Shown here: positions 7,460 to 34,713 of the stretch, one piece after another
Layout: every line of letters begins with the position of its first letter
Position numbering within the stretch: position 1 is the first letter of the stretch
DNA from: Chthoniobacterales bacterium
Lineage (GTDB): Bacteria; Verrucomicrobiota; Verrucomicrobiia; Chthoniobacterales; UBA10450
Assembly: GCA_013695925.1 (NCBI GenBank)
Contig: JACCZO010000180.1
Coordinates: 1 to 34,713 of the forward strand
Direction: 5' to 3'
DNA length: 34,713 bases
Made by a program: the position numbers and the translations under genes
The notes under the pieces: generated by a model
What the model was told of the DNA's origin: nothing
The model's database searches: none
Seen by the model: the letters and a program-made list of their open reading frames with translations, nothing else

Positions 7460-9055
7460 GTGAAGAAACTCGGCCGCCTCTTGCTCTGGCTCCTCGCCGG
7501 GGCCGTAGTTTTGGCCTTCATCGTCTTGCTCGCGGTCAATCTCTATGTCCAATCGCAGGGCACCCACCATCGCATTCAGCAGGAACTCAGCCAGCGGCTC
7601 AACACGCCGCTCCATCTTCGCCAGATCAGCGTTACTCCCTGGAGCGGGCTGAAGCTCAACGGCATCACCATTCCGCAGGAGTCCGGCAAGATCGGCGGCA
7701 ATTTCCTCGAGGCGCAGAGCTTCCAGCTGCGGGTGCAGTTCTGGTCGCTTTTCAGGGAGCGGCTCGTCATCCGGCAGGTTTCGTTGATTAAACCGGAAGT
7801 CGTCTGGGCGCAGAATTCCGCCGGCAAGTGGCGGCTGCCCGAGTTGCCGCCGGAAAAGTCCGCCCCTCGACCGGCCCCTCCGACCGAGCCGGCGGCCTCT
7901 CCTCTTCCCACTGCAATTCTCGCCTCGACCGCGACGGTGGCCGTCCTGCCTAACGGGCCGGGTCTCGCTCCCACGCCCGCTCCCGTTTTTACCCCCGAAG
8001 TTCAGCGCGTCACGCTCAAGGACGGCGACTTCACCTTCCTCGATGCCGCCGGCCGGGTGATCGCGAAATTTAACGGACTCCACTTCACTTCCAGCTTCCG
8101 CACCGCGACCGCGATCAAGGGCAGTGCGCGGGTCGACAAGATCTCGTTGCGGGATCGCTTCTTCATCGAGAACCTCGAATCCCCGCTCCGCTACCAGCCC
8201 GAAGAGCTGGGCTTTTCCAACATTTCCGCCCAGGCCGCGGGCGGCTCGATCAGCGGTCGTTTTGAGATGGAATTGCAAGCCCCCGATTCGCCCTTCACCG
8301 TGGAGGTTAAATTCCGCGAGCTGCAGGCGGAGAAACTCATGACCAACGCGGGCGGGCCCGCCGGCATGATCCAGGGCCGCCTCGAAGGATTCCTCAATGC
8401 GGCCGGAAAAACAGCCGACAGCAACGCCCTGACAGGCCACGGCGAAATCGTGCTGCGCGACGGAAAATTGCAACAATACAGTCTCCTCGTCGCGCTCGGA
8501 CAGATTTTGCAGATCGATGAGTTAATGCAGCTCGATCTCGAGCAGGCCGAGGTGAAATATCACATCAGCCCCGGGATTGTGACGATCGACCAGTTGCTCC
8601 TTCGTTCGCCTAACATTCGCCTGACCGCGACCGGCACGATCAGTTTCCGGGGAAAATTACGGCTCGATTCGCAACTCGCGCTGAATGACAAGGTGCGGCG
8701 CCAACTCTTCAGCCCGATCCGGCAAAACTTCCAACCCCTGGCGGAACCGGCCGGCTACGCCGCGGTCAATTTTCAGGTCAGCGGAACCGTCGATCGGCCG
8801 AAAACCGACTTGATGGATAAGCTGGTCGGCCGCGATCTACGCGATCTGCGCGGCGTGATCAGCAGCCTCTTCGGGCACGGGAAAAAGAAAAAGAAACCCG
8901 CCAAAGAATCGCCTTCGCCTAACGAGGAGGTCGAGACGTCCCGCGAGACCACACTCGCGGCTGACCAGACCGCAACCCCTTCGGATCAAACCGCCTCCTC
9001 GCCTTCGGTTACGCCCACCTCCTCGCCGTCGGCCACACCTTCGCCTTCGCCATGA
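7460..9055 (+). CDS. AsmA-family (outer-membrane biogenesis) protein with an S/T/P-rich C-terminal tail
   Basis: It has an N-terminal signal-anchor (LLLWLLAGAVVLAFIVLLAV), an AsmA-like N-terminal region and a C-terminal region (VSGTVDRPKTDL). The start is GTG, and the stop overlaps the rsmD start (ATGA). Confidence 0.68.
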   Translation: MKKLGRLLLWLLAGAVVLAFIVLLAVNLYVQSQGTHHRIQQELSQRLNTPLHLRQISVTPWSGLKLNGITIPQESGKIGGNFLEAQSFQLRVQFWSLFRERLVIRQVSLIKPEVVWAQNSAGKWRLPELPPEKSAPRPAPPTEPAASPLPTAILASTATVAVLPNGPGLAPTPAPVFTPEVQRVTLKDGDFTFLDAAGRVIAKFNGLHFTSSFRTATAIKGSARVDKISLRDRFFIENLESPLRYQPEELGFSNISAQAAGGSISGRFEMELQAPDSPFTVEVKFRELQAEKLMTNAGGPAGMIQGRLEGFLNAAGKTADSNALTGHGEIVLRDGKLQQYSLLVALGQILQIDELMQLDLEQAEVKYHISPGIVTIDQLLLRSPNIRLTATGTISFRGKLRLDSQLALNDKVRRQLFSPIRQNFQPLAEPAGYAAVNFQVSGTVDRPKTDLMDKLVGRDLRDLRGVISSLFGHGKKKKKPAKESPSPNEEVETSRETTLAADQTATPSDQTASSPSVTPTSSPSATPSPSP

Positions 9056-9684
9056 GAGTCATCGCCGGAAGCTCCGGCGGCATCCGGCTCTTCGTTCCCA
9101 AGACCGATGTCCGGCCCACCATGGATCGGGTCAAAGCCGCCATCTTCTCCAGCCTGGGCGAGCGCGTTATCGGCGCGCGGGTGCTCGATCTCTTTGCCGG
9201 CACCGGCGCGCTCGGGATCGAGGCGCTCAGTCGCGGCGCGGCTTCTGCCATGTTTGTGGAAATCGATCGCCAGGCGATCGCCGCGATCGAACGCAATCTT
9301 GCCCAGACCGGCCTCAGCGGCCGGATTCGGAAACAGGACGTTTTTGATTTTCTCAATCACGCCAGCACCGCTGAGTCGCACGATCTGATTTTCGCCGACC
9401 CGCCCTACGACAAATCGAAGCTCGGCGATGCCTTCACCAAGCTTCTCCTGCGCAACGATCGTCTGCCCCCGCGCCTAACGAGTGACGGAATTTTCGTGCT
9501 CGAAAAAAGACCCGGCGAGCGCCTGCCGGCGACGGATTTTTGGGAAGTCACCCGGCGCAAAACCTACGGCGCGACCGAGACGATTTTCCTGCAAGTTGTA
9601 GCCGGGGGCGGTGACTCCGGCCGAGCCAGGGCCAAGAAAGCGTTACGCCAGCCGGGGTCAACGCCCCCGGCTACAACGCAATGA
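9052..9684 (+). CDS. rsmD: 16S rRNA (guanine966-N2)-methyltransferase RsmD
   Basis: Motifs present are MRVIAG..GG, RPTMDRVKAAIFS, LDLFAGTGALGIEALSRGA and FADPPYD. The C-terminal ~25 aa are read-through of a palindromic repeat (9595-9677). Confidence 0.88.
   Translation: MRVIAGSSGGIRLFVPKTDVRPTMDRVKAAIFSSLGERVIGARVLDLFAGTGALGIEALSRGAASAMFVEIDRQAIAAIERNLAQTGLSGRIRKQDVFDFLNHASTAESHDLIFADPPYDKSKLGDAFTKLLLRNDRLPPRLTSDGIFVLEKRPGERLPATDFWEVTRRKTYGATETIFLQVVAGGGDSGRARAKKALRQPGSTPPATTQ
9595..9677. repeat. REP-like palindromic element, family GTAGCCGGGGGCG (copy 1)
   Basis: GTTGTAGCCGGGGGCG (9595-9610) is the reverse complement of CGCCCCCGGCTACAAC (9662-9677), with additional inner pairing. A second copy lies at 25335-25404. 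Confidence 0.7.
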
Positions 9685-10973
9685 TCCGCCTCCTCTACAA
9701 TCTGCTTTTTCCCCTCGCCCTTGTGATTTTCCTCCCGGGCTATGTCGTGAAAATGTTCCGGCGCGGCAACTACCGAAACAAGTTCGGGCAACGTCTCGGT
9801 CTTTATGACGCGGAAACGCGCGCACGACTCGCTCCCGGCGGCTCGACCTGGCTGCACGCCGTCAGCGTCGGCGAGGTGATGATCGCGCTGAAACTCGCGG
9901 CTAAAATGAAAGAACGCGATCCAGGGCTGCGCGTTTCCCTAACGACTACGACCACGACCGGCTTCGCCCTCGCACAAAAGCACTCGCCGGACTGGATGGA
10001 AGTCCTTTACACACCACTCGACTTTTGGCCGATCATGCGCCGCGCCTTTGCTGTCATTCGGCCGAGCCGCGTCATTCTCGTGGAAGCGGAGGTGTGGCCA
10101 AACCTGACTGCAATCGCGCACGAGACCGGAATCCCGCTCGCCCTGGTGAATGCGCGCCTTTCCCCACGCTCGGAAGGGCGCTTCCGGAAGTTCAGGTTTT
10201 TCGTCCGGCCATATTTTCGCAAGCTTGATCTGATTTGCGTCCAGGAGCCGGAAGATATGGCGCGCTGGGAATCGTTAGGCGCGGAGCGCGCTCGCCTTTA
10301 TCCGGTCGGGAGCATCAAATATGATCCCGAGAATGTGGTTTCGCGCCCGGAGACGCCGCGCGCCGCGCTCCAGGATCTCGGGATTGATCCAGAACGTCCG
10401 ATCCTGCTCGCCGGCAGCACGCATCAGGGCGAAGAGGAAATCCTCGCCCGTATCTATCTCGAGTTGCGGCAGGACTTCGCCGACCTTTTTCTCATCCTCG
10501 CCCCCCGCCACATTGAGCGGACAACCGAGATCCGTTCGCGAATCGGCGCGCTCGATCTTTCCACCGCGCGCCGGAGCCAAATTGTGCACGCTCCCGGGAC
10601 CGATTGCCTGCTTCTCGATACCACCGGTGAACTGCGCGATTGGTACTCGATCGCGACCGTTGTTTTTATGGGCAAGAGCCTGACCGCGCGCGGCGGTCAA
10701 AACCCGGTCGAAGCGATCGTCGCCGGGCGGCCGGTAGTGTTCGGGCCCCACATGGAAAACTTCGCGAATCTCTCGCGCGCGCTCGTCGCCGCCGGAGGCG
10801 CGCTCCAACCGAAGGACGTGACCGGCCTAACGAATGGGTTGCGCGAATTATTGCGCAACCCGCAACAGCGGGAGCATCTGACCCAGCGCGCCCGCACCGT
10901 CCTCGACCCGCATCGCGGGGCGACCGCTCGCACCGCAGAGCTACTCGAAAAGCTGGCCGCGCACGGCACCTGA
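9681..10973 (+). CDS. waaA: 3-deoxy-D-manno-octulosonic acid (Kdo) transferase
   Basis: Evidence is the WLHAVSVGEV signature, GGQNPVEA, a 430-aa length and an ATGA overlap with rsmD. Confidence 0.92.
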   Translation: MIRLLYNLLFPLALVIFLPGYVVKMFRRGNYRNKFGQRLGLYDAETRARLAPGGSTWLHAVSVGEVMIALKLAAKMKERDPGLRVSLTTTTTTGFALAQKHSPDWMEVLYTPLDFWPIMRRAFAVIRPSRVILVEAEVWPNLTAIAHETGIPLALVNARLSPRSEGRFRKFRFFVRPYFRKLDLICVQEPEDMARWESLGAERARLYPVGSIKYDPENVVSRPETPRAALQDLGIDPERPILLAGSTHQGEEEILARIYLELRQDFADLFLILAPRHIERTTEIRSRIGALDLSTARRSQIVHAPGTDCLLLDTTGELRDWYSIATVVFMGKSLTARGGQNPVEAIVAGRPVVFGPHMENFANLSRALVAAGGALQPKDVTGLTNGLRELLRNPQQREHLTQRARTVLDPHRGATARTAELLEKLAAHGT

Positions 10974-23373: not shown

Positions 23374-23937
23374 AGAAGATAACGAAGTTAACGAAGAGGA
23401 TTAGAAAGCGAGGCTGCGAGGTTCGGTGGACTCGCCAGAAGGTCAATTTCGTCCTGGTTGGCGGCGGGCAGAACCAACCTCGAGATGCCATTTTTAAGTG
23501 TCTGCTCGTGAAAGTTGAAGAGGAGGCCGATCGGAACGTCGAGCAACTTCATGTAGCTCAGGAGCTGCGCCTTGTGCACGCCGACGATGGTTTCCACAAC
23601 TTTCAGTTCGATGAGCAGGCAATTCTCGATCAGCAGGTCGAAGCGCAGCGGTTCGTCAAAAACGAATTGCTTGTATTCGATGCGCACGAGTTTTTGCTGG
23701 ACCGCGTTGATCCCGCGTAGCTGCAACTCACGCCCGAGACATTTTTCGTAGATCGACTCGATCAGGCCCGGCCCCATCTGCCGATGCACTTCAATCGCCG
23801 CGCCGATGACTTCTTTGCTGAGCTTGTCTGCCTGATGAAATAAAGGGTGCATGGTCAGGGGATAAAACAGAAGGCCAGGAAAGAAACGCAGGGGTGGTTC
23901 CCGGGAAGAACCCTTTGTGACCTTCGTTTCCTTCTGT
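23372..23937 (-). mobile_element. Putative GxxExxY gene cassette 1, bounded by 16-bp inverted repeats
   Basis: ACAGAAGATAACGAAG (23372-23387) compares with the reverse complement of CTTCGTTTCCTTCTGT (23922-23937), ACAGAAGGAAACGAAG, with 14/16 matching. The cassette fills the gp25-PAAR intergenic gap almost exactly. Confidence 0.35.
23388..23852 (-). CDS. GxxExxY-family protein (PD-(D/E)XK nuclease-like fold)
   Basis: The motif GLIESIY (GxxExxY) is followed by a D...ELK-type core (RFDLLIENCLLIELKVV) and LLFNF. The C-terminal tail is read-through of flanking repeat sequence. Confidence 0.85.
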   Translation of the reverse strand: MHPLFHQADKLSKEVIGAAIEVHRQMGPGLIESIYEKCLGRELQLRGINAVQQKLVRIEYKQFVFDEPLRFDLLIENCLLIELKVVETIVGVHKAQLLSYMKLLDVPIGLLFNFHEQTLKNGISRLVLPAANQDEIDLLASPPNLAASLSNPLR

Positions 23938-23949
23938 AAAAATGCTTTC

Positions 23950-24267
23950 TCATGTCGCCATGACGCGCGGTTGAGTAGTGAGGACGAGCAGGCCCTGCCC
24001 GGTCGGCACGCAGACCGCCTGGCTGGTCTGAACGATCACCGGCACGCCGCCGGCGAGGACGCGCGTTGCACCAACGACCCACTGCGCGCTTACGCAAGGT
24101 GGCGTGGACGTGCTCGCCAAGGCGCATCCCGCGACAACGTAGGGAGTGGCCAGAGTGACAACCGGCTGGCCGCTCACCAGGACACGCGGAAACGGCGCAG
24201 TCGGCTGGGCCGGGCCCGCGTGCATGCAGGTGACGACCGCGCCAAGGTGAACAATGGGTCCGGGCAT
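23950..24267 (-). CDS. PAAR-like (DUF4280-type) spike-tip protein (Afp10-like)
   Basis: The 105-aa product starts at the ATG at 24267 (MPGPIVHLGAVVTCMHAG). Its Cys pattern and VLVSGQPVVT / VLAGGVPVIV strands resemble PAAR-like cones. It sits in the position expected between the spike and gp25. Confidence 0.68.
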   Translation of the reverse strand: MPGPIVHLGAVVTCMHAGPAQPTAPFPRVLVSGQPVVTLATPYVVAGCALASTSTPPCVSAQWVVGATRVLAGGVPVIVQTSQAVCVPTGQGLLVLTTQPRVMAT

Positions 24268-24271
24268 AAGA

Positions 24272-24703
24272 TCAGAGGAATATTTCGTCCGCAGATTTCG
24301 CAGATTTTCGCAGATTGGAAGAGGCGGTCGGATCGAAAGCCAACCGCTCATACTGCAGGCTGGTTGCTCCAAAATTGACGAGGAGACCGCGTCTCAGCCC
24401 GGTCGCTGTCAGTGCGTTGATGACCTGTGCCCGATCGGCGCCGGAGAGCTGGGAGATCGCTTTTGTTTCCACCAGGACTGCCTCGAAGCAGATGAAGTCG
24501 GCGCGATAACTGCAGGTTAGGAGCTTGCCCTTATAGCGAATCGGTAAAGGCACTTCGGCTTGAAATGCGATCCCGCGCTCAGCGAACTCCAACGCCATCG
24601 CGGTCTGATAGACGATCTCCAGGAAGCCATGTCCTAGTTCGCGATGAACGGCCATCGCCGCACCGAGAATCGCGTAGGTTTCGGGATCTCTGACTTCTTT
24701 CAT
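24272..24703 (-). CDS. GxxExxY-family protein (PD-(D/E)XK nuclease-like fold), second paralog
   Basis: It contains GFLEIVY (GxxExxY), YRADFICFEAVLVETKA and LLVNFG. The last ~15 aa (SNLRKSAKSADEIFL) translate the CGCAGATT repeat. Confidence 0.85.
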   Translation of the reverse strand: MKEVRDPETYAILGAAMAVHRELGHGFLEIVYQTAMALEFAERGIAFQAEVPLPIRYKGKLLTCSYRADFICFEAVLVETKAISQLSGADRAQVINALTATGLRRGLLVNFGATSLQYERLAFDPTASSNLRKSAKSADEIFL

Positions 24704-27026: not shown

Positions 27027-27689
27027 TCATGAAATCCCCTTGATCCCGAAGTTGGCGAAGGATCCGTTAGGCGCGAGGCCCGCGAGCCGTTCCTTTTGCT
27101 GCTGGTAAATCATGTAAAGACTCCCCGCCTTGGCCTCGAAACCGACATCGTTCACACTCAGGACGCGCAGCCCGAGGCTGACCTTGGCCCGGATGGGATT
27201 GAGGTTCGGATCGAAGGCTTCCTCCGTGATGCTGAATTCCGTCAGGCGCACCGGGATGATCCGGTTCTTGCTCCAGATAAAAAGCGTAAGCGCGGACTGC
27301 ATCGGGATGATCTCGAGCGTGCCCGATTTCGAGAGCGCGTTGTTCGATTGCAACTGCTCGCTCGTCGGATAAACGATCGCCTCCAGCGCCGCGAGCTGCG
27401 GATGAATCCCGACCTCGACCGCGTTCGTATTTTGATCCGGAAACTCGAGCTGATCGGTCGCGTCGATCTCCGCATCGAGCTTGATCGTTTCCACCGGCGG
27501 CCCCTTCAGCCGCAATATCTCGGAACGATCACCGCCGCCATCCGCGCTCACGCCTTGGATTTGGAGCGAACGCGTCAGCGTGTCGGGATTGTATTGCAGC
27601 GAAATAATCCGCTGCACTGCGCCCGAGTCCGGATTCACGAGGACGATGCCGCCCTTGAGCAGTTTTGGTGAATTGGGAAAAGTGCTCAT
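27027..27689 (-). CDS. CIS tube-like protein (tube initiator / Afp7 N-terminal-like)
   Basis: The 220-aa product contains LLKGGIV...ISLQYNPDTLTRSL...LRLKGPPVETIKLDAEIDATD...IIPVRLTEFSITEEAFDPNLNPIRAKVSLGLRVL, resembling gp19/CIS-tube-fold proteins of eCIS loci. Confidence 0.68.
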   Translation of the reverse strand: MSTFPNSPKLLKGGIVLVNPDSGAVQRIISLQYNPDTLTRSLQIQGVSADGGGDRSEILRLKGPPVETIKLDAEIDATDQLEFPDQNTNAVEVGIHPQLAALEAIVYPTSEQLQSNNALSKSGTLEIIPMQSALTLFIWSKNRIIPVRLTEFSITEEAFDPNLNPIRAKVSLGLRVLSVNDVGFEAKAGSLYMIYQQQKERLAGLAPNGSFANFGIKGIS

Positions 27690-27692
27690 TCG

Positions 27693-29162
27693 TTAGGCAA
27701 GCTGGTCTCCTCCCTCGACCCGGTCGGGGCCGGCGTAGAGCGTGCCACTCGGCCGCTCCAACATTGCGCCCTGCTTCTTTTGGCCGCCGCTCGGCGCCGC
27801 GGCCGGTGCGGCCGTAGTCGTGATTTTGCAGGGACTGGTTTGATCGGTCAGGTCCTTGACGCACATCGAGCCCTTCTGCCAATCGTAGTTGTATTCCGGA
27901 CTCGCCCAGACGGCGGCCAGGTTCCCTTTGTGCGCAAAATAGAGCCGCTTGATTTTCGTCATGTTTTTCGCCGCTGTTTCTCCTTTCGCCAGGCCCTCGA
28001 TGCAGTCCTTGACCGCGTGCCCGTCGGCGCTTTTAAGTCCGCTCACCTGTTTGACCAGCGCTGCGTCCACCTCGCCTTCCTTGCCTTTCGGAATCTGACT
28101 CGGATCGGTCAGTTCGGTTCCGTCGGGCAGCACGAGGGGCGTAACCACGCTGACGATGCTCCAGCAGGTCATGCCGCGGGCCTTCTGCGCGCCGACATTT
28201 TGACGGAAGGTTTCCATCTCCTGCGGAGCGTCGCCGAGCTTGCAGCCACGAAAATCGATCAGCGCCGGTGCCTTGTCCGCAGGAATGCCCTTCAGATCCT
28301 TGCTCAAGTCGGAGAGCTTGACCCAGGAGATTGTCCCGATACCGGAGATGACCTGCACTTCGCCCGCGCGGTTCGAATGCGAGACGACGAAAATGGTGCC
28401 GATCGGTTTGCCTAACGCCAATAGCTTTTTCTTGGCATCTTCCCCACTGGTCACGCGGATGGCGGTCGGGGCGTAGCTTTTCCCTTCCGTCATCGCGTCC
28501 GCTTCGTCGCCGAAAACGATCGCCACATCGATCCGTTCTTCTGGTTTGGCGTCGTCGCGTTGCACCGCGTGACGGCCGGGCGCGGTCTGCTGTACGACAT
28601 GGGCGAGCTCGTGCGCGAGAAGTTTCTGGCCCGCCGCCGTCGCCGGCGCGTACCGCCCAGCGTTAAAAGCGATGTGGCTGCCCACGGTGTAGGCGTGCGC
28701 CCGAACGGCCCGCGCGCTTTCCGCCGCCCGCGAATCAGCATGAATGCGCACGTCTCCAAAATGATGACCGAAGTGGGAAGACATCCGGTCCCGCGTCGCC
28801 GAATCGAGCGGCTCGCCGCCGGATGCGACCACCTCATCCACGATCGGCGGCGAGGTCATGTCGCCGAGAGAGTCTCCGTTCCACGACGAGAGCCGCGCCC
28901 GGGACGCGCTCGAGCCTAACGAGTCGGCCGCCCGGTCCGCCTCCTCTTCCAAGGCGCTACCAGAAGCCGTCACAACCAGTTTGGCCTGCAGCTTCGCCGG
29001 CGGGCGCTCCGTCGCGCGCTGCTGCTTGCGACAGCTCTCGCATTCTCCCGCGGGCCCGGGGGTTCCACCGCAGGCGCATTTGCGCTGGAGCCGCGCACTC
29101 CGCCAGGGCGCGGACAGTTGCGCTGTGCTCGCCTGGGTTTGCAGTAGATTCGCCTCTTTCAT
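27693..29162 (-). CDS. DUF4157 domain protein 3 (Cys-rich leader + DUF4157 with HELAH + orphan ~285 aa C-terminal domain)
   Basis: Its parts are the leader LQRKCACGGTPGPAGECESC, EEEADRAAD, and the DUF4157 core PPIVDEVVASGGEPLD...FGHHFGDVRIHAD...AYTVGSHIAF...LLAHELAHVVQQ. It overlaps the upstream gene with ATGA. Confidence 0.85.
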   Translation of the reverse strand: MKEANLLQTQASTAQLSAPWRSARLQRKCACGGTPGPAGECESCRKQQRATERPPAKLQAKLVVTASGSALEEEADRAADSLGSSASRARLSSWNGDSLGDMTSPPIVDEVVASGGEPLDSATRDRMSSHFGHHFGDVRIHADSRAAESARAVRAHAYTVGSHIAFNAGRYAPATAAGQKLLAHELAHVVQQTAPGRHAVQRDDAKPEERIDVAIVFGDEADAMTEGKSYAPTAIRVTSGEDAKKKLLALGKPIGTIFVVSHSNRAGEVQVISGIGTISWVKLSDLSKDLKGIPADKAPALIDFRGCKLGDAPQEMETFRQNVGAQKARGMTCWSIVSVVTPLVLPDGTELTDPSQIPKGKEGEVDAALVKQVSGLKSADGHAVKDCIEGLAKGETAAKNMTKIKRLYFAHKGNLAAVWASPEYNYDWQKGSMCVKDLTDQTSPCKITTTAAPAAAPSGGQKKQGAMLERPSGTLYAGPDRVEGGDQLA

Positions 29163-31957
29163 GGCAGCGGATGGCGGGCGTTTAGTTGTTCCGCGAGGTC
29201 GACGATCTTGCTTTGGTGTCCGGCGATGATGTTACTGACCCGGCCGACGAGGGCGCGCAAAAGCAGGCGAGTCCGTTCCGGCGTCGTCGTTAGGGCAAAA
29301 AAATCGTCGCCGAGAACGATGGAAGTGCCCGGGCCGGCCGACCACGAAGTGGTTTTCGCCGCCGGATCGCGCTTCGCGTTCAGATCAGCGCGGACCCGAT
29401 TGAGCAGAGTCTTGTAACGGTCGGCCAGGCCCGCGACCGCAAAGCGATCGTCATCGGTCGGGAGGGCGGGCGGCGGCGTTAGGCCAAACTGCGCGGCGAT
29501 CAGCTTCATCGTTTCTTCGTAGTAGCTGTTGGTCCATTTCTTCTTCGGGGGACGCGATTCCACCATCGTGGAATAGGTGCTGGCCGTTTCCTGGTGGGAC
29601 CATTTCAACCAGTCCGCCAAGAGAGTGATGGCGTCGGCCACGCCGGATTTCTCGCCCGCGGCGACGGTCAGTTTGTCCACCGGAAGCTTCGGCCGGGCAA
29701 AGGACGGATCCGCCGCCAGCATGACGAAAAGCGAGTAACTGTCGGAGTTCTGCAGCGCCTGGTCCGGCGTCAGGCTGGCGATGCGGCGTTCGTGCCGGTA
29801 AGCGATATCAGTCGTGCCGGCCGTCTTCCCTGCGAGGCCCAGCCCCGGCGTGCCGTGGGCGGTTTCGTGGATGAAATTGCGTTTCCGTTCCTGCTTGCCG
29901 GCGCTCACGAAGGTCGGGCAAAGCGTCAGCGTCGCCTTCTTGCCTTCATCTTCGTTGTAGGCAATCGCTACCGTGCAGGTGCCGTTGCATAGCGTCCCGC
30001 AGCGATGTCGCTTTTTCTTCGCCACGATGTCCATTTGCGCCCGAACCTTCCCCAGGTTCGCGTCCAGCGTCGTCATCATCGCGGCCCCGCTGCCCGCGCC
30101 GCCTCCCCCCCCGAAAAACTCGTCCCGCAGATCGTTCGTACTTGCATCCGTTCCTGAGGTGAGAAGCCGGCGGGCCTTGTCGATTAATCCCTGCGCCTCC
30201 GTCCGTACCGCGACGAAATCCGTTTCGACGTTGGCGCTGCACGGCCCGGTGGCCGCCGTCTTTTTGCAATCAGGAACCGCGGAGGTGGCCCCGGCGGGCC
30301 CGATCTCGACCTCGCGCAAGCTGCGATAGTCGAGCCGTCCGTCGCCGACATCGGGCTTCGGGTCCGGCTTGCGTTTGCCGGTGTGTCCGACCGTCTTCAA
30401 TTCCGCATCGACCGCATTGATCCGCCGGTCGGCCAGGGTCCGGCCGATTGCCGGGGTCGTCGCCTCATCCTCGCTTACCCGACCGATGAGATCGAGATCG
30501 TCTCCGCTGTGCGCTCCGCCGCCGGCGATGAGGACGGCAAACTTTCCCTCCGAGCCGATCGCGACATCGTTGCGCTCAAAAAAGACGCTATGGGCGCCAG
30601 ACGAACCCATCCCGCTCTTGCGCCCCGTCACCTCCAGGCCCGCCGGAACGGCCCGCTGCACGGCGGGCGGCAGTGCGCTCTGCTGCAAGACGTGGGTCAA
30701 CTCGTGCGCGAGCAACTGGCGGCCGGCATTTGTCTCCGGGGCAAAGCTGCCGCCGGCAAAAACGACATCCTGCCCGACCGTGTAGGCCCGGGCCTGGACG
30801 GCGCGGGCCGATTCCGCCGCGCGTCCGTCGCGATGAATCCGCACGCTTCCAAACTCGTAACCGAAACGATCTTCCATGAACTCGCGCGTCGCGCGGTCGA
30901 GCGGTTCTCCGGACGATTGCAGTACCTGATCGACGATCGGGGGCGCGCTGCCCACTTCCTGATGGCCCGCGGCCTTGCGCTGGAGGGTTCCTTCTTCTTT
31001 TTTCTTCGGTTCCTCGCTCGTTTCGCCGCTCAGTTTGAAATCCGGAGCCCACGGGCCTAACGAACGTCGCGGCCCCGCGGCCGGGGCCCCGGGGCGGAAA
31101 CCGGGATCCTGCCCCACCGCCCCGAAGGAGAGCGGCGAGGTGCGCGGCGTCAGCTGGCCGGGAGCGAGCATCCGGCTCGAGACGTAGGCGTTGATCATCT
31201 CTTGCTCGCTCGCCTTCTCTTCATCGCTCTTGAGGCCTTCGCGAAACTTCGCCTGGTCCGCCGCCATCCGCGCGGTCTCGGCCCGGAACTTTTCGGTCTC
31301 GCTGAGCGTGGTTTTTTTGTCGCGCGTCTTTTCTTTGCCTAACGGAATGCTGAAGGTCGCGACCACCTTGGTCGGTTTATCGACCGGCCCTTCATAGGTG
31401 ATTTTCATCTTCAGGCCGGGCCTGATCTTATCGAGCGGGATCTCGGGAATTCCGATCGGCAATTCCTTGTGCGTGGCCGCGAGGGTCGCGACCGCTCCGG
31501 CAACGGCGGCGCCGGTAATGATCTTCCCCGGCAAGGTCGAAATGAAGGCGTCTCCGAGCTCTTCTGCTTTTTTTGTGATCTCTTTGCCCTGCGGAGTTTC
31601 GAGAAACGCTTCGCCCACCTTCTTGGCTGCTTCTTTGTATTTTTCCTCTTCGGATTTCGGCTTGGCCGGTTCTTCGCGTTGCACGGCACCGCCGCTACCT
31701 AACGAACTGATTGAAGGGCGGCCCGTGCGCCCCCCGCCGACCGCCTCTTCGGCTACCCGGTCGGCCTCCTGCTCGTACTGGTCGCCGGGCTGATTAATCG
31801 CCAACTTGGTCTGTAACGATAGCCGTTGCCGTTTGCACTCGGCACACTCCCCGGTCGGCCCGGGAGTTCCGCCGCAGGCGCACTTGCGCTGCAGCGTTGG
31901 TTGGGCGGAAAGCTTGCTGGCTGTGGCTTGGACAGGCTGAGCGACAGTTACTCTCAT
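29159..31957 (-). CDS. DUF4157 domain protein 2 (Cys-rich leader, ~300 aa K/E-rich linker, DUF4157 with HELTH, C-terminal aspzincin-like HExxH domain)
   Basis: Its parts are LQRKCACGGTPGPTGECAEC, EQEADRVAE, PPIVDQVLQSSGEPLD...FGYEFGSVRIHRD...LLAHELTHVLQQ, and then a second motif set, FIHETAHG...GTTDIAY...LQNSDSYSLF. There are ATGA overlaps at both ends. Confidence 0.85.
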   Translation of the reverse strand: MRVTVAQPVQATASKLSAQPTLQRKCACGGTPGPTGECAECKRQRLSLQTKLAINQPGDQYEQEADRVAEEAVGGGRTGRPSISSLGSGGAVQREEPAKPKSEEEKYKEAAKKVGEAFLETPQGKEITKKAEELGDAFISTLPGKIITGAAVAGAVATLAATHKELPIGIPEIPLDKIRPGLKMKITYEGPVDKPTKVVATFSIPLGKEKTRDKKTTLSETEKFRAETARMAADQAKFREGLKSDEEKASEQEMINAYVSSRMLAPGQLTPRTSPLSFGAVGQDPGFRPGAPAAGPRRSLGPWAPDFKLSGETSEEPKKKEEGTLQRKAAGHQEVGSAPPIVDQVLQSSGEPLDRATREFMEDRFGYEFGSVRIHRDGRAAESARAVQARAYTVGQDVVFAGGSFAPETNAGRQLLAHELTHVLQQSALPPAVQRAVPAGLEVTGRKSGMGSSGAHSVFFERNDVAIGSEGKFAVLIAGGGAHSGDDLDLIGRVSEDEATTPAIGRTLADRRINAVDAELKTVGHTGKRKPDPKPDVGDGRLDYRSLREVEIGPAGATSAVPDCKKTAATGPCSANVETDFVAVRTEAQGLIDKARRLLTSGTDASTNDLRDEFFGGGGGAGSGAAMMTTLDANLGKVRAQMDIVAKKKRHRCGTLCNGTCTVAIAYNEDEGKKATLTLCPTFVSAGKQERKRNFIHETAHGTPGLGLAGKTAGTTDIAYRHERRIASLTPDQALQNSDSYSLFVMLAADPSFARPKLPVDKLTVAAGEKSGVADAITLLADWLKWSHQETASTYSTMVESRPPKKKWTNSYYEETMKLIAAQFGLTPPPALPTDDDRFAVAGLADRYKTLLNRVRADLNAKRDPAAKTTSWSAGPGTSIVLGDDFFALTTTPERTRLLLRALVGRVSNIIAGHQSKIVDLAEQLNARHPLP

Positions 31958-33249
31958 GGCCTCTCTGGCAGGCGGATCTTGCCCGCCTTGCTGTTGTAGT
32001 AATAACCGCGGTCGTCCGACCAGACGGTCACGATGACCCCCTTCTTCTGCCAGCCTTCGCGCCCGGTGATCCGCTTGTAGACAAGGGGCGTCTTAGGATC
32101 GGGCACGTGGAGGTAAATGCCCGTCTCCGTGCCCGGGCCGGCGCGCACCAGTTCCACATCGATCAGGTCGTCAAAGACGATATCGACTGCAGGAGGGCCA
32201 ACGTAGTGCATTTGCAGCAATACCCGCAGGACGCCTGAGTCGGGAAAGATGATGGGCACGATAACGGCATAGCGCGTCGTCGACGCGCCCCCCCCGAACT
32301 TCACATCCAGGCCATCGGAATAAGTCGGCGCCGAATCCTGCCCGTTGAACAGCACCTTCTGCTGACCGTGAGCGGTCGTGAATTCGAAGCGCGCGCTAAC
32401 TCCGGAAATTCCTTTCAGTGGTTGTTTCGAATGCGGATATGGAGCCGCCCCCGGTCCAGACCAATCCAGAAAGTAGCGAAGGAAGAACTCCTCCGCCTCA
32501 CCTTCATAGGCGACCAATCTGCCGACACACGTGCGGTGTCCCGCAGGACCATCTCCTTGGACCGGGCCTGTTCCCTCGACAAAGGCCCCCATAACGTAAT
32601 CAGGATTACATTCCCTGTTCTCGGTGTGCATCCAGATCGTAATATTGTCAGCCGACCACGGCTCTGTCGCCTTGGCAGTTGCCCCGGCGCTGGGCCCCTT
32701 GCCCGCCGGTTTGTCGTCGGGCGACCTGCTCAGGACTGGCCCCGTGGCCCGCCCCACGAGCTGTTGCTTAGCCAAATCGGCCCCCACGGTTTCCTGCAGC
32801 ATGGTCTCGGCTTTCCTCTCCGATTCATCGTCGGCGTCCCTGACTTCGAGGCGGGCAGGCACCGGAATCTCGCCCTCGCTCTGTTGGAGGAAGTGGGTCA
32901 ACTCGTGCTTCAGCAGGCGAAGTCCCTCGGCCGTGCCGGGAGCGAAACGGTCTTTGGCAAACGCGATGTGCGACCCCACTGTGTAGGCGTGGGCATCCAC
33001 CGCCTGCGCTGAATCCGCCGCGCTCGAATCGCTATGAATTCGCACCCGGCCAAAATCATGTCCGAAGCGCGCCTCCATTGCCACACGAGTGGACTCTTCC
33101 AACGGCTGCCCGGGGGAACGCAAAACCTGATGCACAATTGGTGGCGCAATCGCCGGCGCCGCATCATTGGCAGCGCGGCGCTGCAGACGTGCGTTCGCTG
33201 GCACACACTGGCAACTCAAAGCGGGCGACCGCTGGCCTTGGAAAATCAT
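31954..33249 (-). CDS. DUF4157 domain protein 1 (DUF4157 with HELTH + orphan ~270 aa beta-rich C-terminal domain)
   Basis: It contains PPIVHQVLRSPGQPLEESTRVAMEARFGHDFGRVRIHSD...AYTVGSHIAF...LLKHELTHFLQQ. I preferred the ATG at 33249, which overlaps the upstream stop (ATGA), to the TTG at 33267. Confidence 0.85.
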   Translation of the reverse strand: MIFQGQRSPALSCQCVPANARLQRRAANDAAPAIAPPIVHQVLRSPGQPLEESTRVAMEARFGHDFGRVRIHSDSSAADSAQAVDAHAYTVGSHIAFAKDRFAPGTAEGLRLLKHELTHFLQQSEGEIPVPARLEVRDADDESERKAETMLQETVGADLAKQQLVGRATGPVLSRSPDDKPAGKGPSAGATAKATEPWSADNITIWMHTENRECNPDYVMGAFVEGTGPVQGDGPAGHRTCVGRLVAYEGEAEEFFLRYFLDWSGPGAAPYPHSKQPLKGISGVSARFEFTTAHGQQKVLFNGQDSAPTYSDGLDVKFGGGASTTRYAVIVPIIFPDSGVLRVLLQMHYVGPPAVDIVFDDLIDVELVRAGPGTETGIYLHVPDPKTPLVYKRITGREGWQKKGVIVTVWSDDRGYYYNSKAGKIRLPERP

Positions 33250-33500
33250 TCCGTTCCTCCTTTCCAAATCGTGCGCGCAATCTGCCGACCAGCGCGCGAC
33301 GGTTTCGTTAGACTTGCGGCGCGTAGCGGGCCGGCCTCGATTTTTTCCGGACTCTGATGCCAGGCCACCGGGAGGCCTTTTTCCATCAGCAATCCACGCA
33401 ACTCGCTTTCCAGCACGTCGCCGATCCGCCAGCGATCACCCGGGGCAAAGCCGTGCAGGACCAGCTCCTCGATGTGGACCTCGATCTCGCGCGGATTCAT
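33246..33500 (-). CDS. Small conserved-looking hypothetical protein (84 aa), translationally coupled to the first DUF4157 gene
   Basis: It starts at the ATG at 33500 (MNPREIEVHIEELVLHGFAPGDRWRIGDVLESELRGLL). The 37 codons upstream in the track ORF translate repeat element D. Confidence 0.6.
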   Translation of the reverse strand: MNPREIEVHIEELVLHGFAPGDRWRIGDVLESELRGLLMEKGLPVAWHQSPEKIEAGPLRAASLTKPSRAGRQIARTIWKGGTE

Positions 33501-33514
33501 AGGACTGAGGTGAT

Positions 33515-33598
33515 CCGCAGATTTCGCAGATTCACGCAGATGATTTGGGGCGCTTTTTCCTTTCCTCAAATCTGCGGACATCTGCGTCATCTGCAGAT
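33515..33598. repeat. Palindromic CGCAGATT-repeat element (copy D, gene-less)
   Basis: CCGCAGATTTCGCAGATTCACGCAGAT (33515-33541) is mirrored by AAATCTGCGGACATCTGCGTCATCTGCAGAT (33568-33598). It fills the gap between the ATPase and the small gene. Confidence 0.72.
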
Positions 33599-33607
33599 TA
33601 TTTAGTC

Positions 33608-34713
33608 TCATCGCCAGCCTCCCAATTCCGCTTCGGTCAGCGGTTTTTCGAGCTTCTCGTATTCAAGGCGGGCCGCGCCTAACAAATGCGGCATTCGCAC
33701 CGGTTCGCCCGCATCGGCCGCGGCAAAGGCGGCATTGAGCGCGATGCTGCGAATGTTCCCGCCAGAAATCGAAAGGCGGGAAAGGGCGCGCAGGTCCAAT
33801 TGATCGGTCGGCGTTTTCGCAGGGAAAATTCTTTTCCAGATTTCCGCGCGCTGCGCCTGATCGGGAAAGGGAAACTGGACGATGAAGCGCAACCGGCGGA
33901 GGAAAGCCTGATCGAGCGCCTCCTTCATGTTGGTGGTCAGAATCGCCAGCCCGCGATAGGCCTCCATTCGCTGCAGGAGGTAGCTGATCTCGACGTTGGC
34001 GTAACGATCGTGGCTGTCTTTCACCTCGCTCCGTTTGCCGAAGAGCGCGTCGGCCTCGTCGAAGAGCAGGACCGCACCGCCTTCCTCCGCTGCATCGAAG
34101 ACGCGCCGCAGATTCTTTTCCGTCTCGCCGATGTACTTGCTCACCACCGCGCTGAGATCGATCCGGAAAAGATCGAGCCGCATTTCGTTCGCGAGGATTT
34201 CGGCGGCAAGCGTTTTGCCGGTGCCGCTCGGGCCGGCGAAGAGCGCGCTCAAGCCGAGCCCGCGGCTCGATTGCTCGGCGAAACCCCACTCGTCGTAGAC
34301 CCGGCCGCGCTGCCGCAGATGCTGTGCGATCGTCTTCAGCACGGTCATCTGTGGCGTCGGCAGGACGATATCGGCCCAGGTGGCGTTCGAGGTGATGCGC
34401 GGCGCAAGATCCTGCAGGCGCGGACGGGCCTGCAGCCGGCAGGCATCCCAGAGACTCGACTCCGATGGTTCGCCTAACAATCCCGTCGCGGTCGTCCGGA
34501 TCGCGGCGGTGCTGAAGTCGAATTGCGCAACCAAGTGGTCGAGATGTCCGTTCCAGTTGCGGGCGTTTTCCCCGATCGCCTGTTCCCAGGCGAGGCGCTG
34601 CTCCGCCCGAGTTGGCTTCGGCACCTCGATCGTCATCAGCGGCCGCTCTAGATCGCGTCGCGGCTCGCGCGTGGAGATGAGCAACGGCGTGCCCGTGAGC
34701 TCGATCCAGCGCG
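33608..34713 (-). CDS. AAA+ ATPase of the eCIS type (Afp15/Pvc15-like), N-terminus beyond the right edge
   Basis: The frame stays open from 34684 to the window edge. It has Walker A (GPSGTGKT), Walker B (VLLFDEADALF), SKYIGETEKNLRRVF and LAILTTN..ALDQAFLRR, which is a CDC48/FtsH-like AAA core. Confidence 0.9.
   Translation of the reverse strand, partial: RWIELTGTPLLISTREPRRDLERPLMTIEVPKPTRAEQRLAWEQAIGENARNWNGHLDHLVAQFDFSTAAIRTTATGLLGEPSESSLWDACRLQARPRLQDLAPRITSNATWADIVLPTPQMTVLKTIAQHLRQRGRVYDEWGFAEQSSRGLGLSALFAGPSGTGKTLAAEILANEMRLDLFRIDLSAVVSKYIGETEKNLRRVFDAAEEGGAVLLFDEADALFGKRSEVKDSHDRYANVEISYLLQRMEAYRGLAILTTNMKEALDQAFLRRLRFIVQFPFPDQAQRAEIWKRIFPAKTPTDQLDLRALSRLSISGGNIRSIALNAAFAAADAGEPVRMPHLLGAARLEYEKLEKPLTEAELGGWR

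Follow-up and report, generated by a model that had tools for sequence, protein, structure and literature searches.

Organisation of the locus

The window (the whole 34,713-nucleotide stretch of DNA that was analysed) comes from a soil Verrucomicrobiae/Chthoniobacterales-like bacterium and contains an unmistakable locus for a contractile injection system (CIS), a phage-tail-like machine, inside which three adjacent genes, here called A, B and C, are encoded on the minus strand. Gene A (31954-33249, 431 aa) has a short degenerate leader, a DUF4157 core, a downstream ExxAE helix, a disordered linker and a predicted all-beta C-terminal domain. Gene B (29159-31957, 932 aa) has a four-cysteine (Cys4) leader with an EQEADR helix, a conserved insert of ~250 aa, the DUF4157 core and an aspzincin-like C-terminal region, and gene C (27693-29162, 489 aa) has a Cys4 leader with an EEEADR helix, the core and a C-terminal domain that appears caspase/CHAT-like. 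The three ORFs were found with the lengths that the original prediction gave them, and its placing of the array between an ATPase gene and a tube-like gene was borne out when the flanking genes were identified by Pfam. Upstream lies an Afp15/Pvc15-like AAA+ ATPase gene (33608-34684, minus strand; PF00004, E 8e-28), which is truncated at the end of the contig to its C-terminal ~358 aa; full-length orthologs in relatives are 634-649 aa long and have an N-terminal WHD. Directly downstream of the array is a 220-aa tube-like or tube-initiator gene (27027-27689, minus strand; PF19266 CIS_tube, E 1.3e-8). A small conserved ORF (33246-33611, minus strand, listed as 121 aa) has no family match in Pfam, PHROG or NCBIfam, and its homologs of 84-115 aa (49-68% identity) occupy the equivalent position in related loci L001, L002 and L005, always between the ATPase and the DUF4157 array.

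Direct reading of the sequence confirms chaining by ATGA overlaps at 33246-33249, 31954-31957 and 29159-29162, in that the stop of the small ORF overlaps the ATG of A, A/B and B/C are likewise joined by 4-nt overlaps, and 3 nt separate the stop of C from the ATG of the tube gene. These overlaps and the 3-nt gap leave no room for an interleaved same-strand ORF, and so the claim that no small immunity-like ORFs are interleaved also holds; at the junctions of A, B and C a cognate immunity gene directly downstream of each cargo gene is absent. The start of A is placed at the ATG at 33249 (MIFQGQ), with GGAGGA upstream. A longer ORF from a TTG at 33267 was considered as gene A and rejected, because the MIFQxQ start is shared by the first-position array genes of relatives and GGAGGA precedes the ATG at 33249.

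Other CIS genes at the locus are LysM-like, Phage_base_V spike, PAAR-like, gp25, Baseplate_J and TIGR02243 genes, and the sheath, gp19 tube and Pvc16_N cap genes are found upstream in the loci of relatives. The array is thus mid-operon, upstream of the baseplate genes. Further downstream a DUF6519 gene and a beta-helix protein gene are probable fibre or receptor-binding genes, and the adjoining Kdo transferase and AsmA genes indicate that the host is diderm. Profile search recognised no CIS_TMP (PF19268) in the window or in the upstream genes of relatives, the positive control being a 502-aa protein of locus L008 (E 3e-98). [quoted passage not shown]

The DUF4157 core and the leader

The feature common to all three proteins is DUF4157 (PF13699, now named eCIS_core; also the zincin-like PVC-metallopeptidase domain), which lies at aa 49-126 of A (32872-33105, minus strand; E 5.9e-29, 100.5 bits), aa 352-428 of B (30674-30904, minus strand; E 7.3e-32, 109.8 bits) and aa 118-194 of C (28581-28811, minus strand; E 2.4e-30, 105 bits). 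The profile check proposed with the original prediction thus gives matches for all three genes (E 6e-29 to 7e-32), far above the gathering score of 22 bits, and upholds a shared core that includes HExxH. The zinc-binding signature HExxHxxQ is intact as HELTHFLQQ (A115), HELTHVLQQ (B418) and HELAHVVQQ (C184), and in the predicted structure of A the core has a pLDDT of 84-97. Pairwise the cores are 56-63% identical (E 1e-31 to 1e-33), well beyond chance.

Outside the core, similarity is limited to the leaders of B and C, over ~70 aa with ~48% identity (71 aa, E 1e-13). These leaders carry four cysteines as LQRKCACGG..GECxxC, followed by a (D)xxExEADR helix. The leader of B (aa 1-84; 31706-31957, minus strand) carries LQRKCACGGTPGPTGECAEC (aa 26-41) and EQEADRVA (aa 62), and that of C (aa 1-117; 28812-29162, minus strand) carries CACGGTPGPAGECESC (aa 29-44) and EEEADRAA (aa 72). 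The AF2 model of C gives a pLDDT below 50 at aa 1-25 and 52-61, about 80 at aa 31-50 and about 90 at aa 71-80. The leader is present in 90 of 159 DUF4157 ORFs and also in array ORFs that have no DUF4157. In A the leader is only vestigial, lacking both the Cys4 motif and the upstream EQEAD helix, and the model has a pLDDT below 50 at aa 1-29. A instead has a downstream version of the ExxA[DE] motif, ERKAETML, 16 aa past the core in a helix at aa 142-165 (32755-32826, minus strand). More generally the helix follows HExxH by 14-16 aa in A-type proteins and sits inside the N-terminal leader in B- and C-type proteins, which have ExEADR upstream only, in B ~270 aa ahead of the core. Both the four-cysteine motif and the placing of the ExxAD helix either before or after the core may be new.

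The glutamate of this helix invites comparison with that of M48 peptidases ('NEQEADR', for example in BepA), and an unlikely reading is that the DUF4157 zincin takes its third ligand for zinc from the (D)xxExEADR helix, the domain being circularly permuted. The PVC-metallopeptidase study (PMC3482391) puts the third ligand, a Glu, on a helix after HExxH, whereas in B and C the candidate counterpart, the ExEAD helix, comes ahead of the core. If this reading were true, the leader would serve both for packaging and as the completing part of the active site of the peptidase, which would be turned off when the AAA+ ATPase unfolds the protein at loading and turned on when the protein refolds after ejection, such that self-cleavage would free the C-terminal effector only in the target.

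The C-terminal regions and their exchange between loci

Past the core the proteins diverge completely, as had been claimed; the C-terminal regions of A, B and C have no detectable similarity to one another and differ in predicted fold. That of A (aa 244-431, 31957-32520, minus strand) is predicted to be an all-beta, Ig/arrestin-like beta-sandwich. It matches no Pfam model, and just two full-length homologs of it occur among 5.8e9 proteins. A profile of the domain gives 67 matches, most of them over the last ~60 aa only and always at the protein C-terminus, marking out a separately distributed terminal module (31957-32136, minus strand); PF13699 is found in 27 of the 49 matching proteins that were scanned. 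The structure prediction and Foldseek comparison originally proposed for each C-terminal domain were carried out for A and C. For A they support the all-beta fold with no significant structural match (E > 1e-3), and for C they indicate a caspase-like fold. Because A has a vestigial leader and a C-terminal domain that resembles a binding fold and not an enzyme, A might be something other than a toxin, or might go unloaded.

In B the core is preceded by a conserved insert at aa 85-335 (30953-31705, minus strand) which has no Pfam match and contains a hydrophobic segment, GKIITGAAVAGAVATLAATH, at aa 144. Of 62 related loci, 23 have a single copy of the insert, joined to different C-terminal domains, and in a large protein database it is found mostly in 330-440-aa proteins that end directly past the core. 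Since the N-terminal 430 aa of B (leader, insert and core) thus also exist as a free-standing ~400-aa protein, a partly adaptor or structural role is possible. The C-terminal region of B contains an aspzincin (M35-like) metallopeptidase domain at aa 640-745 (29723-30040, minus strand; PF14521, E 1.8e-9, score 38.6 bits where the cut-off is 30 bits). Its motifs, of the HExxH plus GTxDxxYG type, are HETAH (aa 697) and GTTDIAY (aa 714), and there is a weak match to the peptidyl-Lys metalloendopeptidase 1g12. The spacing from HETAH to GTTDIAY exceeds that of deuterolysin/GfMEP enzymes.

C ends in an alpha/beta domain at aa ~205-452 (27807-28550, minus strand) which is modelled by AF2 as a caspase-like (clan CD) fold with pLDDT above 90 throughout. 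Foldseek ranks the SAVED-CHAT structure 8tl0 first (E 1.5e-4, prob 1.0) and lists legumain and butelase further down; normalisation to full-length chains keeps the TM-scores low (~0.2). His262 (FVVSHSN) and Cys307 (DFRGCKLG) are invariant in a 40-sequence alignment and in the model follow strands 254-260 and 301-304, in the order His then Cys, as a putative catalytic dyad. None of the 40 C-type members matches CHAT or Peptidase_C14 in Pfam (E <= 1), nor does PDB sequence or profile search of the domain give a CHAT or caspase match, and it is on the predicted fold and the two invariant residues that C appears caspase/CHAT-like. The C-type family has 55 homologs at 45-92% identity, nearly all of ~450-510 aa with an N-terminal PF13699.

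An unbiased comparison of 64 related loci took the tube gene as its anchor; 357 relatives of this gene were found in genome contigs. The slot is conserved, as 61 of the 64 tube-anchored loci hold one to five DUF4157 genes, which end a median of 43 nt before the tube gene, and three hold none. Its contents are hypervariable, with zero to five genes of 83-1929 aa per locus and 153 C-terminal regions that sort into 106 clusters, of which 81 have a single member. In the count of C-terminal types the C-type was scored in 0/80 loci, the B-type in 4/80 and the A-type in the window only. Three genes had been called an unusually rich payload, which does not stand, because 16 of the 64 loci carry three or more and the maximum is five.

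In the closest relatives the flanks are 80-92% identical in nucleotide sequence and A, B or C is swapped. L010 is without A, keeps B at 83% nucleotide identity and has in third place another gene that carries the same leader; L005 keeps C and differs in the first and second genes; L002 keeps B and C and has a different first gene. L002_461 is 44% identical to A over the N-terminal 156 aa and differs from it in the C-terminal region. The comparison of orthologous loci that was proposed for detecting C-terminal swapping therefore reveals swaps of cassettes between conserved flanks, and the hypervariable slot and mosaic relatives support the original view of a conserved module with variable C-termini as a polymorphic cargo set; Cgo1 and Cgo2 of AlgoCIS (PMC8894135) and the toxins validated by Geller 2021 and Danov 2024 are experimental precedents in its favour. 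Gain, loss and replacement of cassettes between these flanks shape the array, probably through recombination via the conserved leader- and core-coding stretches.

Probable cargo function, alternatives and relation to known systems

Overall it is likely that A, B and C are CIS cargo (effector) proteins, each composed of a leader, the DUF4157 core and an exchangeable C-terminal effector, namely a predicted beta-sandwich in A, a putative aspzincin-type metalloprotease in B and a putative caspase/CHAT-like cysteine protease in C. By analogy with Cgo1 and Cgo2 of AlgoCIS the leader would direct unfolded cargo into the inner-tube lumen via the AAA+ ATPase encoded upstream, and sheath contraction would then expel it for delivery to its presumed targets, where the protease and toxic activities might act. 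The Cys4 leader is in this way a candidate portable loading tag for this CIS lineage. The core, rather than being the loading signal, would serve as a peptidase (accessory or self-processing) or as an adaptor to the spike/tube-initiator complex.

In a different arrangement one or more of the three proteins, B being the most plausible, would be mainly structural or for assembly, either tape-measure-like or a spike/tube-initiator adaptor comparable with Streptomyces Tme and Sle2, its C-terminal domain a passenger. As the lineage has no recognisable CIS_TMP, either in the window or in the upstream genes of relatives, a DUF4157 protein could have the part in determining length or in assembly that has been proposed for Tme of Streptomyces, and the DUF4157 gene directly upstream of the tube-initiator genes in 61/64 loci stands where tme stands in S. 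davawensis. In loci that have just one DUF4157 gene its product is long (median 932 aa), the pre-core insert of B is present exactly once per locus where it occurs (23/62), leader, insert and core make up a stand-alone protein, and in Streptomyces a small DUF4157 protein links an effector with the baseplate (bioRxiv 10.1101/2025.11.06.686954). However 39 of the 62 loci are without the B-type insert and 3/64 are without any DUF4157 gene in the slot, single-gene slot proteins span 306-1929 aa, which is hard to square with a ruler, and PHROG and Pfam detect no tape-measure similarity. Upstream in relatives a TAC-like gene precedes an unknown gene of 205-257 aa, a pair that offers another tape-measure candidate, and AlgoCIS has a separate Alg14 tape measure beside its DUF4157 cargo. 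C-type proteins also occur in the Afp-order loci L008 and L009 with a separate CIS_TMP, and so what was found, with widely varying lengths and no CIS_TMP similarity, is not the pattern of a tape measure with conserved C-termini against which the original prediction set itself. The structural role is improbable on this balance.

Quite improbable is that the CIS acts inside or on its producer, as do the cytoplasmic Streptomyces CIS in cell death and differentiation, with A, B and C as self-directed proteases and factors. Such a use would fit the absence of interleaved immunity genes, the resemblance of the lineage to the widely transferred group of the S. davawensis CIS, which affects the development of its producer (PMC11126660), and the assignment of two of the three C-terminal domains as proteases, which need not be toxins. 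Yet the host is diderm, unlike Streptomyces, probable fibre or receptor-binding genes lie downstream, hypervariable C-termini are a signature of conflict systems, and PVC-type toxins are commonly without immunity genes (PMC3482391). That A, B and C are instead recent tandem duplicates whose C-termini diverged past recognition with no cassette exchange is exceedingly improbable. Although they are adjacent, on the same strand, translationally coupled and 56-63% identical in their cores, each core resembles cores of other loci about as closely as those of its array neighbours, full-length orthologs of B and C (62-87% identity) are found elsewhere in varied combinations, and the predicted folds are different (aspzincin, caspase-like alpha/beta and all-beta). 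Core comparison, C-terminal clustering and mosaic relatives already contradict such duplication.

Under the cargo reading A, B and C are fresh examples of a well-described class of interchangeable cargo and not a new kind of system, and the locus leaves the understanding of injection systems unchanged. What it adds is three as yet uncharacterised types of cargo from a lineage of uncultured soil Verrucomicrobiae, these being a recurrent family of DUF4157 with a caspase-like domain, an aspzincin fusion and a rare beta-sandwich protein, together with a clean natural case of cassette swapping between near-identical injection machines, of use in the engineering of programmable injection systems.

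The layout itself has been published for the PVC-metallopeptidase polymorphic toxins in 2012 (PMC3482391), for validated DUF4157 toxins by Geller 2021 (PMC8213781) and Danov 2024 (PMC11297309), and for Cgo1 and Cgo2, the tube-lumen cargo of AlgoCIS, in 2022 (PMC8894135). Cgo1 and Cgo2 of Algoriphagus machipongonensis, for which the N-terminal region is needed for loading and DUF4157 is dispensable (PMC8894135; bioRxiv 10.64898/2026.05.27.728243), are like A-C adjacent CIS genes with no immunity gene, and the layouts agree in a disordered N-terminal region (modelled for A and C), DUF4157 and differing C-terminal domains. The N-terminal regions of the cargo of one system resemble each other, as do the leaders of B and C but not the vestigial leader of A, and as in the array one C-terminal domain is a predicted metalloprotease. 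In contrast to AlgoCIS the array has three genes and not two and has the Cys4 motif in the leader, and it belongs to another CIS lineage and gene order, between the ATPase and tube-initiator genes and with no separate CIS_TMP.

S. davawensis Tme and S. lividans Sle2 share with the array a DUF4157 gene directly upstream of the tube-initiator and spike genes and a CIS lineage spread over distant phyla, and B likewise has a hydrophobic segment upstream of the core. Tme co-purified with spike and tube-initiator proteins in S. davawensis (PMC11126660). It differs from A, B and C, which show no tape-measure similarity in Pfam or PHROG, in its 2247 aa, its several transmembrane helices, its homology to tape measures and its nuclease.

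The PVC-metallopeptidase toxins join this constant domain to variable toxins that include caspases and metallopeptidases, with immunity genes often absent (PMC3482391), and so caspase-like and metallopeptidase toxins with the same domain, several per genome, are their likeness to the array; the C-terminal domain of A and the C-type family match no Pfam model. In the surveys of Geller 2021 and Danov 2024 DUF4157 is similarly the core eCIS marker, N-terminal to toxins, and most C-terminal domains are unannotated. There the toxins are mostly at the operon 3' end, whereas the array here is mid-operon and upstream of the baseplate genes. The validated toxin EAT13 of Candidatus Udaeobacter is flanked by DUF4157 genes and comes from the same bacterial group as the closest relatives of the window.

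Organisation of the CIS operon and its DUF4157 array

The window, the entire 34.7-kb contig, carries housekeeping genes in its left third (Rho, GlnE, a rhomboid protease, a DAG-kinase-like protein, AsmA, RsmD, a Kdo transferase and a GT25 glycosyltransferase), and a single contractile injection system (CIS) operon on the minus strand takes up the stretch between position 12.2 kb or so and the right end. It opens with an AAA+ ATPase gene truncated at the contig end and a small conserved ORF (listed as 121 aa), continues with three DUF4157 genes, here A, B and C, and then encodes a CIS_tube protein, a LysM-like 120-aa protein, a 375-aa protein, a Phage_base_V spike, a PAAR-like protein, gp25, Baseplate_J, a TIGR02243 baseplate protein, another large protein, DUF6519 and finally a beta-helix protein. 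The upstream genes absent from the window were read in relatives, and comprise sheath, gp19 tube, a T4_baseplate/TAC-like protein, an unknown protein of 205-257 aa, a Pvc16_N cap and the full ATPase. In two related loci (L001 1862-3165, L005 3405-4774) the T4_baseplate-like protein encoded between tube and cap has a weak Phage_TAC_7 match, and its neighbour of 205-257 aa belongs to no family; by gene order these two could be a chaperone and tape-measure pair.

Genes A (31954-33249, 431 aa), B (29159-31957, 932 aa) and C (27693-29162, 489 aa), all on the minus strand, match PF13699, which Pfam now names "eCIS_core", with E values of 6e-29, 7e-32 and 2e-30, and each keeps HExxHxxQQ intact. The original prediction of three consecutive genes sharing a DUF4157 core with HExxH, chained by ATGA overlaps (33246-33249, 31954-31957 and 29159-29162) and free of interleaved immunity-like ORFs, was correct in every testable detail. 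These overlaps and the 3 nt separating the C stop from the tube gene start leave no room for another gene on that strand. Gene A starts at an ATG at 33249 with GGAGGA just before it, and its MIFQGQ N-terminus recurs in many relatives, in the gene that opens the array. Pairwise identity between the cores is 56-63%; a recent tandem duplication as the origin of the three genes was rejected on sequence comparison. Sequence searches of the PDB with A, B and C gave nothing significant, and no solved structure is related to the core by sequence; PHROGs and NCBIfam returned nothing for any of the three.

The nearest relatives of the tube protein (84-98% identity) come from uncultured Verrucomicrobiae, Chthoniobacterales and Candidatus Udaeobacter MAGs. 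A tube-like protein some 65-75% identical, likewise with a DUF4157 slot upstream, occurs across many phyla and in a methanogenic archaeon (for example L057 from a Methanosaeta sp. MAG, L067 from Paenibacillus, L048 from Geothrix, L079 from Thiobacillus and L083 from Nitrosomonas), and this level of identity across such hosts points to extensive horizontal transfer of the CIS type.

Within the baseplate module the PAAR-like tip gene lies at 23950-24267 (minus strand), with 96% identity to a 91-aa protein of L005 and 54-63% to the tip proteins of L001, L003 and L006; a 90-aa arginine-rich ORF at 23855-24127 had been considered for this gene and is spurious. Either side of it, in the spike to gp25 interval, lie two divergent GxxExxY / PD-(D/E)XK_3 genes (23388-23852 and 24272-24703, minus strand; TIGR04256, E about 1e-38 each) of 28% mutual identity. 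Among the 89 related loci the first copy was present only in L013, at the same site and 92% identical, and the second in none. Both seem to have been inserted into an operon that is otherwise conserved. A cysteine-rich N-terminal motif (CGC..CGCCEGI), different from the Cys4 leader motif of the array proteins, begins large baseplate proteins of about 1000-1200 aa 3' of Baseplate_J in several related loci (L006 13723-17310, L028, L031, L032, L046 and L074).

Exchange of C-terminal regions in the slot

The first set of related loci (L001-L009, n=9) was obtained via homologs of C and hence is biased toward carrying C, and so all frequencies come from a second sample anchored on the adjacent tube gene. 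DUF4157 ORFs occupy the slot in 61 of the 64 tube-anchored loci having the full 10 kb upstream: 29 of these carry a single such gene, 16 carry two, nine three, six four and one five. The last gene of the slot ends a median of 43 nt before the tube gene. The three genes of the window thus fall in the upper quartile, and the payload is not exceptional, contrary to its description as unusually rich in the original prediction.

The 153 slot C-terminal regions form 106 clusters, 81 of them singletons; across 80 loci the C-type was found in none, the B-type in four and the A-type in the window only. At the nucleotide level the nearest relatives have flanks of 80-92% identity around a mosaic array. 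In L010 and L011 gene A is missing, B is present at 83% identity, and the third gene, of 393 aa, has the Cys4 leader of C with a different body and no HExxH. In L010, the closest relative, this gene (8748-9929, plus strand), in the C position, encodes the C leader, a degenerate core remnant (HDFDKLRIYAES), a linker rich in Pro and Thr and a C-terminal domain that is unrelated, and its product looks like a cargo that has lost its peptidase. L005 retains C, with homology from the core onward, behind two different genes, and L002 has B and C behind a different first gene, whose product shares its N-terminal 156 aa with A and not the C-terminal region. Occupancy, clustering and mosaic arrays together indicate, at the level of sequence, that the slot is conserved and its payload exchangeable. 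This bears out the proposal of a polymorphic set in which a conserved module is joined to variable C-termini, for which comparison of orthologous loci had been suggested; C-termini conserved across loci, as a structural component would have, were not what that comparison found. Short DNA patches conserved within the stretches that code for leader and core could have served as substrates for recombination.

Domains of A, B and C and the elements around the core

In C the core is followed by an alpha/beta domain of roughly 250 aa with 55 homologs of 45-92% identity, nearly all of about 450-510 aa with an N-terminal DUF4157. An alignment of 40 sequences has His262 (FVVSHSN), Cys307 (DFRGCKLG) and four further cysteines invariant. 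The AlphaFold model (mean pLDDT 82.8, above 90 over the C-terminal domain) has as its best PDB match the CHAT protease of SAVED-CHAT (8tl0; E 1.5e-4, probability 1.0), with legumain and butelase lower, and has first the His and then the Cys each following a beta-strand, which is the clan CD arrangement. Pfam scans of the 40 family members gave no CHAT or caspase match, only weak zincin matches to the core, and the domain is for that reason called a probable, not a proven, caspase-like cysteine protease. Pfam at E <= 5 gave nothing for the N-terminal or the isolated C-terminal region of C.

B has four parts, namely a leader, a conserved insert of about 250 aa (30953-31705, minus strand) carrying a hydrophobic segment rich in Gly and Ala, the core, and a C-terminal region of 500 aa. 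This last region matches Aspzincin_M35 above the gathering score and contains HETAH and GTTDIAY; the N-terminal region gave nothing with Pfam at E <= 5.

A consists of a short leader, the core, a helix, a disordered linker of about 80 aa and an all-beta domain. For its C-terminal region a search of 5.8 billion proteins recovered just two full-length homologs, and most of the 67 matches to a HMMER profile cover the last 60 or so residues alone (31957-32136, minus strand; TGIYLHVPDP..YKRITG.EGWQ..VWSDDRGYYYN..LPERP). This small, beta-rich module invariably forms the very end of the proteins that carry it, which number more than 60 among representatives and measure 54-703 aa; 27 of 49 scanned proteins have PF13699 as well. 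No Pfam model covers it, and Pfam at E <= 5 gave nothing for the isolated C-terminal region. Foldseek searches of PDB and BFVD with the A model (pLDDT 69) returned nothing beyond generic sandwiches of the Ig, arrestin or fibronectin-like kind, all at E > 1e-3, which does not allow a function to be assigned to A.

A four-cysteine leader motif, LQRKCACGG..GECxxC(R/K)K, is present in 90 of 159 DUF4157 ORFs across phyla, in B (31880-31927, from the region of aa 11-26 onward) and in C (29031-29078), where the modelled stretch has a pLDDT of about 80. It recurs in some 11 array ORFs without DUF4157, among them the 393-aa gene of L010 and a 236-aa gene of L005, and is almost absent elsewhere in related loci; in the form LQRKCACGG..GECxECRKK it stands at array protein N-termini in many loci, such as L055, L089, L037 and L029. 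The motif, which may be new to the literature, is a candidate zinc knuckle and lineage packaging tag.

A second element, the helix (D)xxExEADR, lies upstream of the core in 69-73 ORFs and 14-16 aa downstream of it in 26-40, rarely in both positions (1-6 of 152 ORFs), against a background of 0.03-0.3 per 1000 aa. Its ExxA[DE] signature is downstream in A (aa 144, about 32797-32820) and upstream in B (aa 62) and C (aa 72), and in L010-L089 likewise lies on one side of the core or the other; the PF13699 model stops short of the downstream copy. A profile search of the PDB gave only a marginal BepA/M48 match (E 0.3), used as a lead only; in that alignment the motif is similar to the helix that bears the third ligand in M48 peptidases. 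That the helix sits on either side and almost never on both suggests the core may be a circularly permuted zincin with its last (third) ligand on this helix, which in B and C would lie within the loading leader. The movable helix, too, may be new to the literature.

Possible structural role, probable cargo function and known systems

A tape-measure role is rejected for C and unlikely for A and B. C-type proteins are also found in Afp-order loci having a CIS_TMP gene of their own, lengths in the slot run from 83 to 1929 aa, and A, B and C have no tape-measure similarity by PHROGs or by Pfam at E <= 5 (run on the C-terminal part of A and of C and on the N-terminal part of B and of C). No recognisable CIS_TMP (PF19268) gene was found in this CIS lineage, window and relatives included, which could leave room for a DUF4157 protein to take a part in assembly, and the leader, insert and core of B are the best placed to do so. 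Of 62 related loci, 23 have the insert, each in a single copy, and with varied C-terminal regions; leader, insert and core also form a widespread stand-alone family of about 330-440 aa ending directly after the core (P0125-P0186 in a large protein database, with examples from Candidatus Scalindua japonica and Nitrosomonas), and most copies of the insert in that database are in such proteins. In such a role it would resemble the DUF4157 proteins known from Streptomyces to bind those of the spike and tube initiator (PMC11126660; bioRxiv 10.1101/2025.11.06.686954). A partly adaptor or assembly role of this kind for the B module seems rather improbable.

Cargo is the reading favoured by what is known of other systems. 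Zhang et al. 2012 (PMC3482391) defined the domain as PVC-metallopeptidase, a constant N-terminus to which recombining C-terminal toxins, caspase-like and metallopeptidase ones included, are attached, with several such toxins per genome and immunity genes often lacking. DUF4157 was established as a core eCIS domain by Geller et al. 2021 (PMC8213781), who also validated toxins, including one from Candidatus Udaeobacter with DUF4157 genes on its flanks, and Danov et al. 2024 (PMC11297309) predicted 1130 DUF4157 toxins with mostly unannotated C-termini. In AlgoCIS the adjacent DUF4157 proteins Cgo1 and Cgo2 occupy the tube lumen and are released on contraction (Xu et al. 2022, PMC8894135), and a 2026 preprint (10.64898/2026.05.27.728243) reports that loading via an AAA+ protein needs a disordered N-terminal region and not DUF4157. 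Given these studies, the array falls in a known class: the original observation is confirmed and its interpretation supported save for the unusual richness, and A, B and C, as probable cargo, belong to the well-described DUF4157 class of contractile injection systems.
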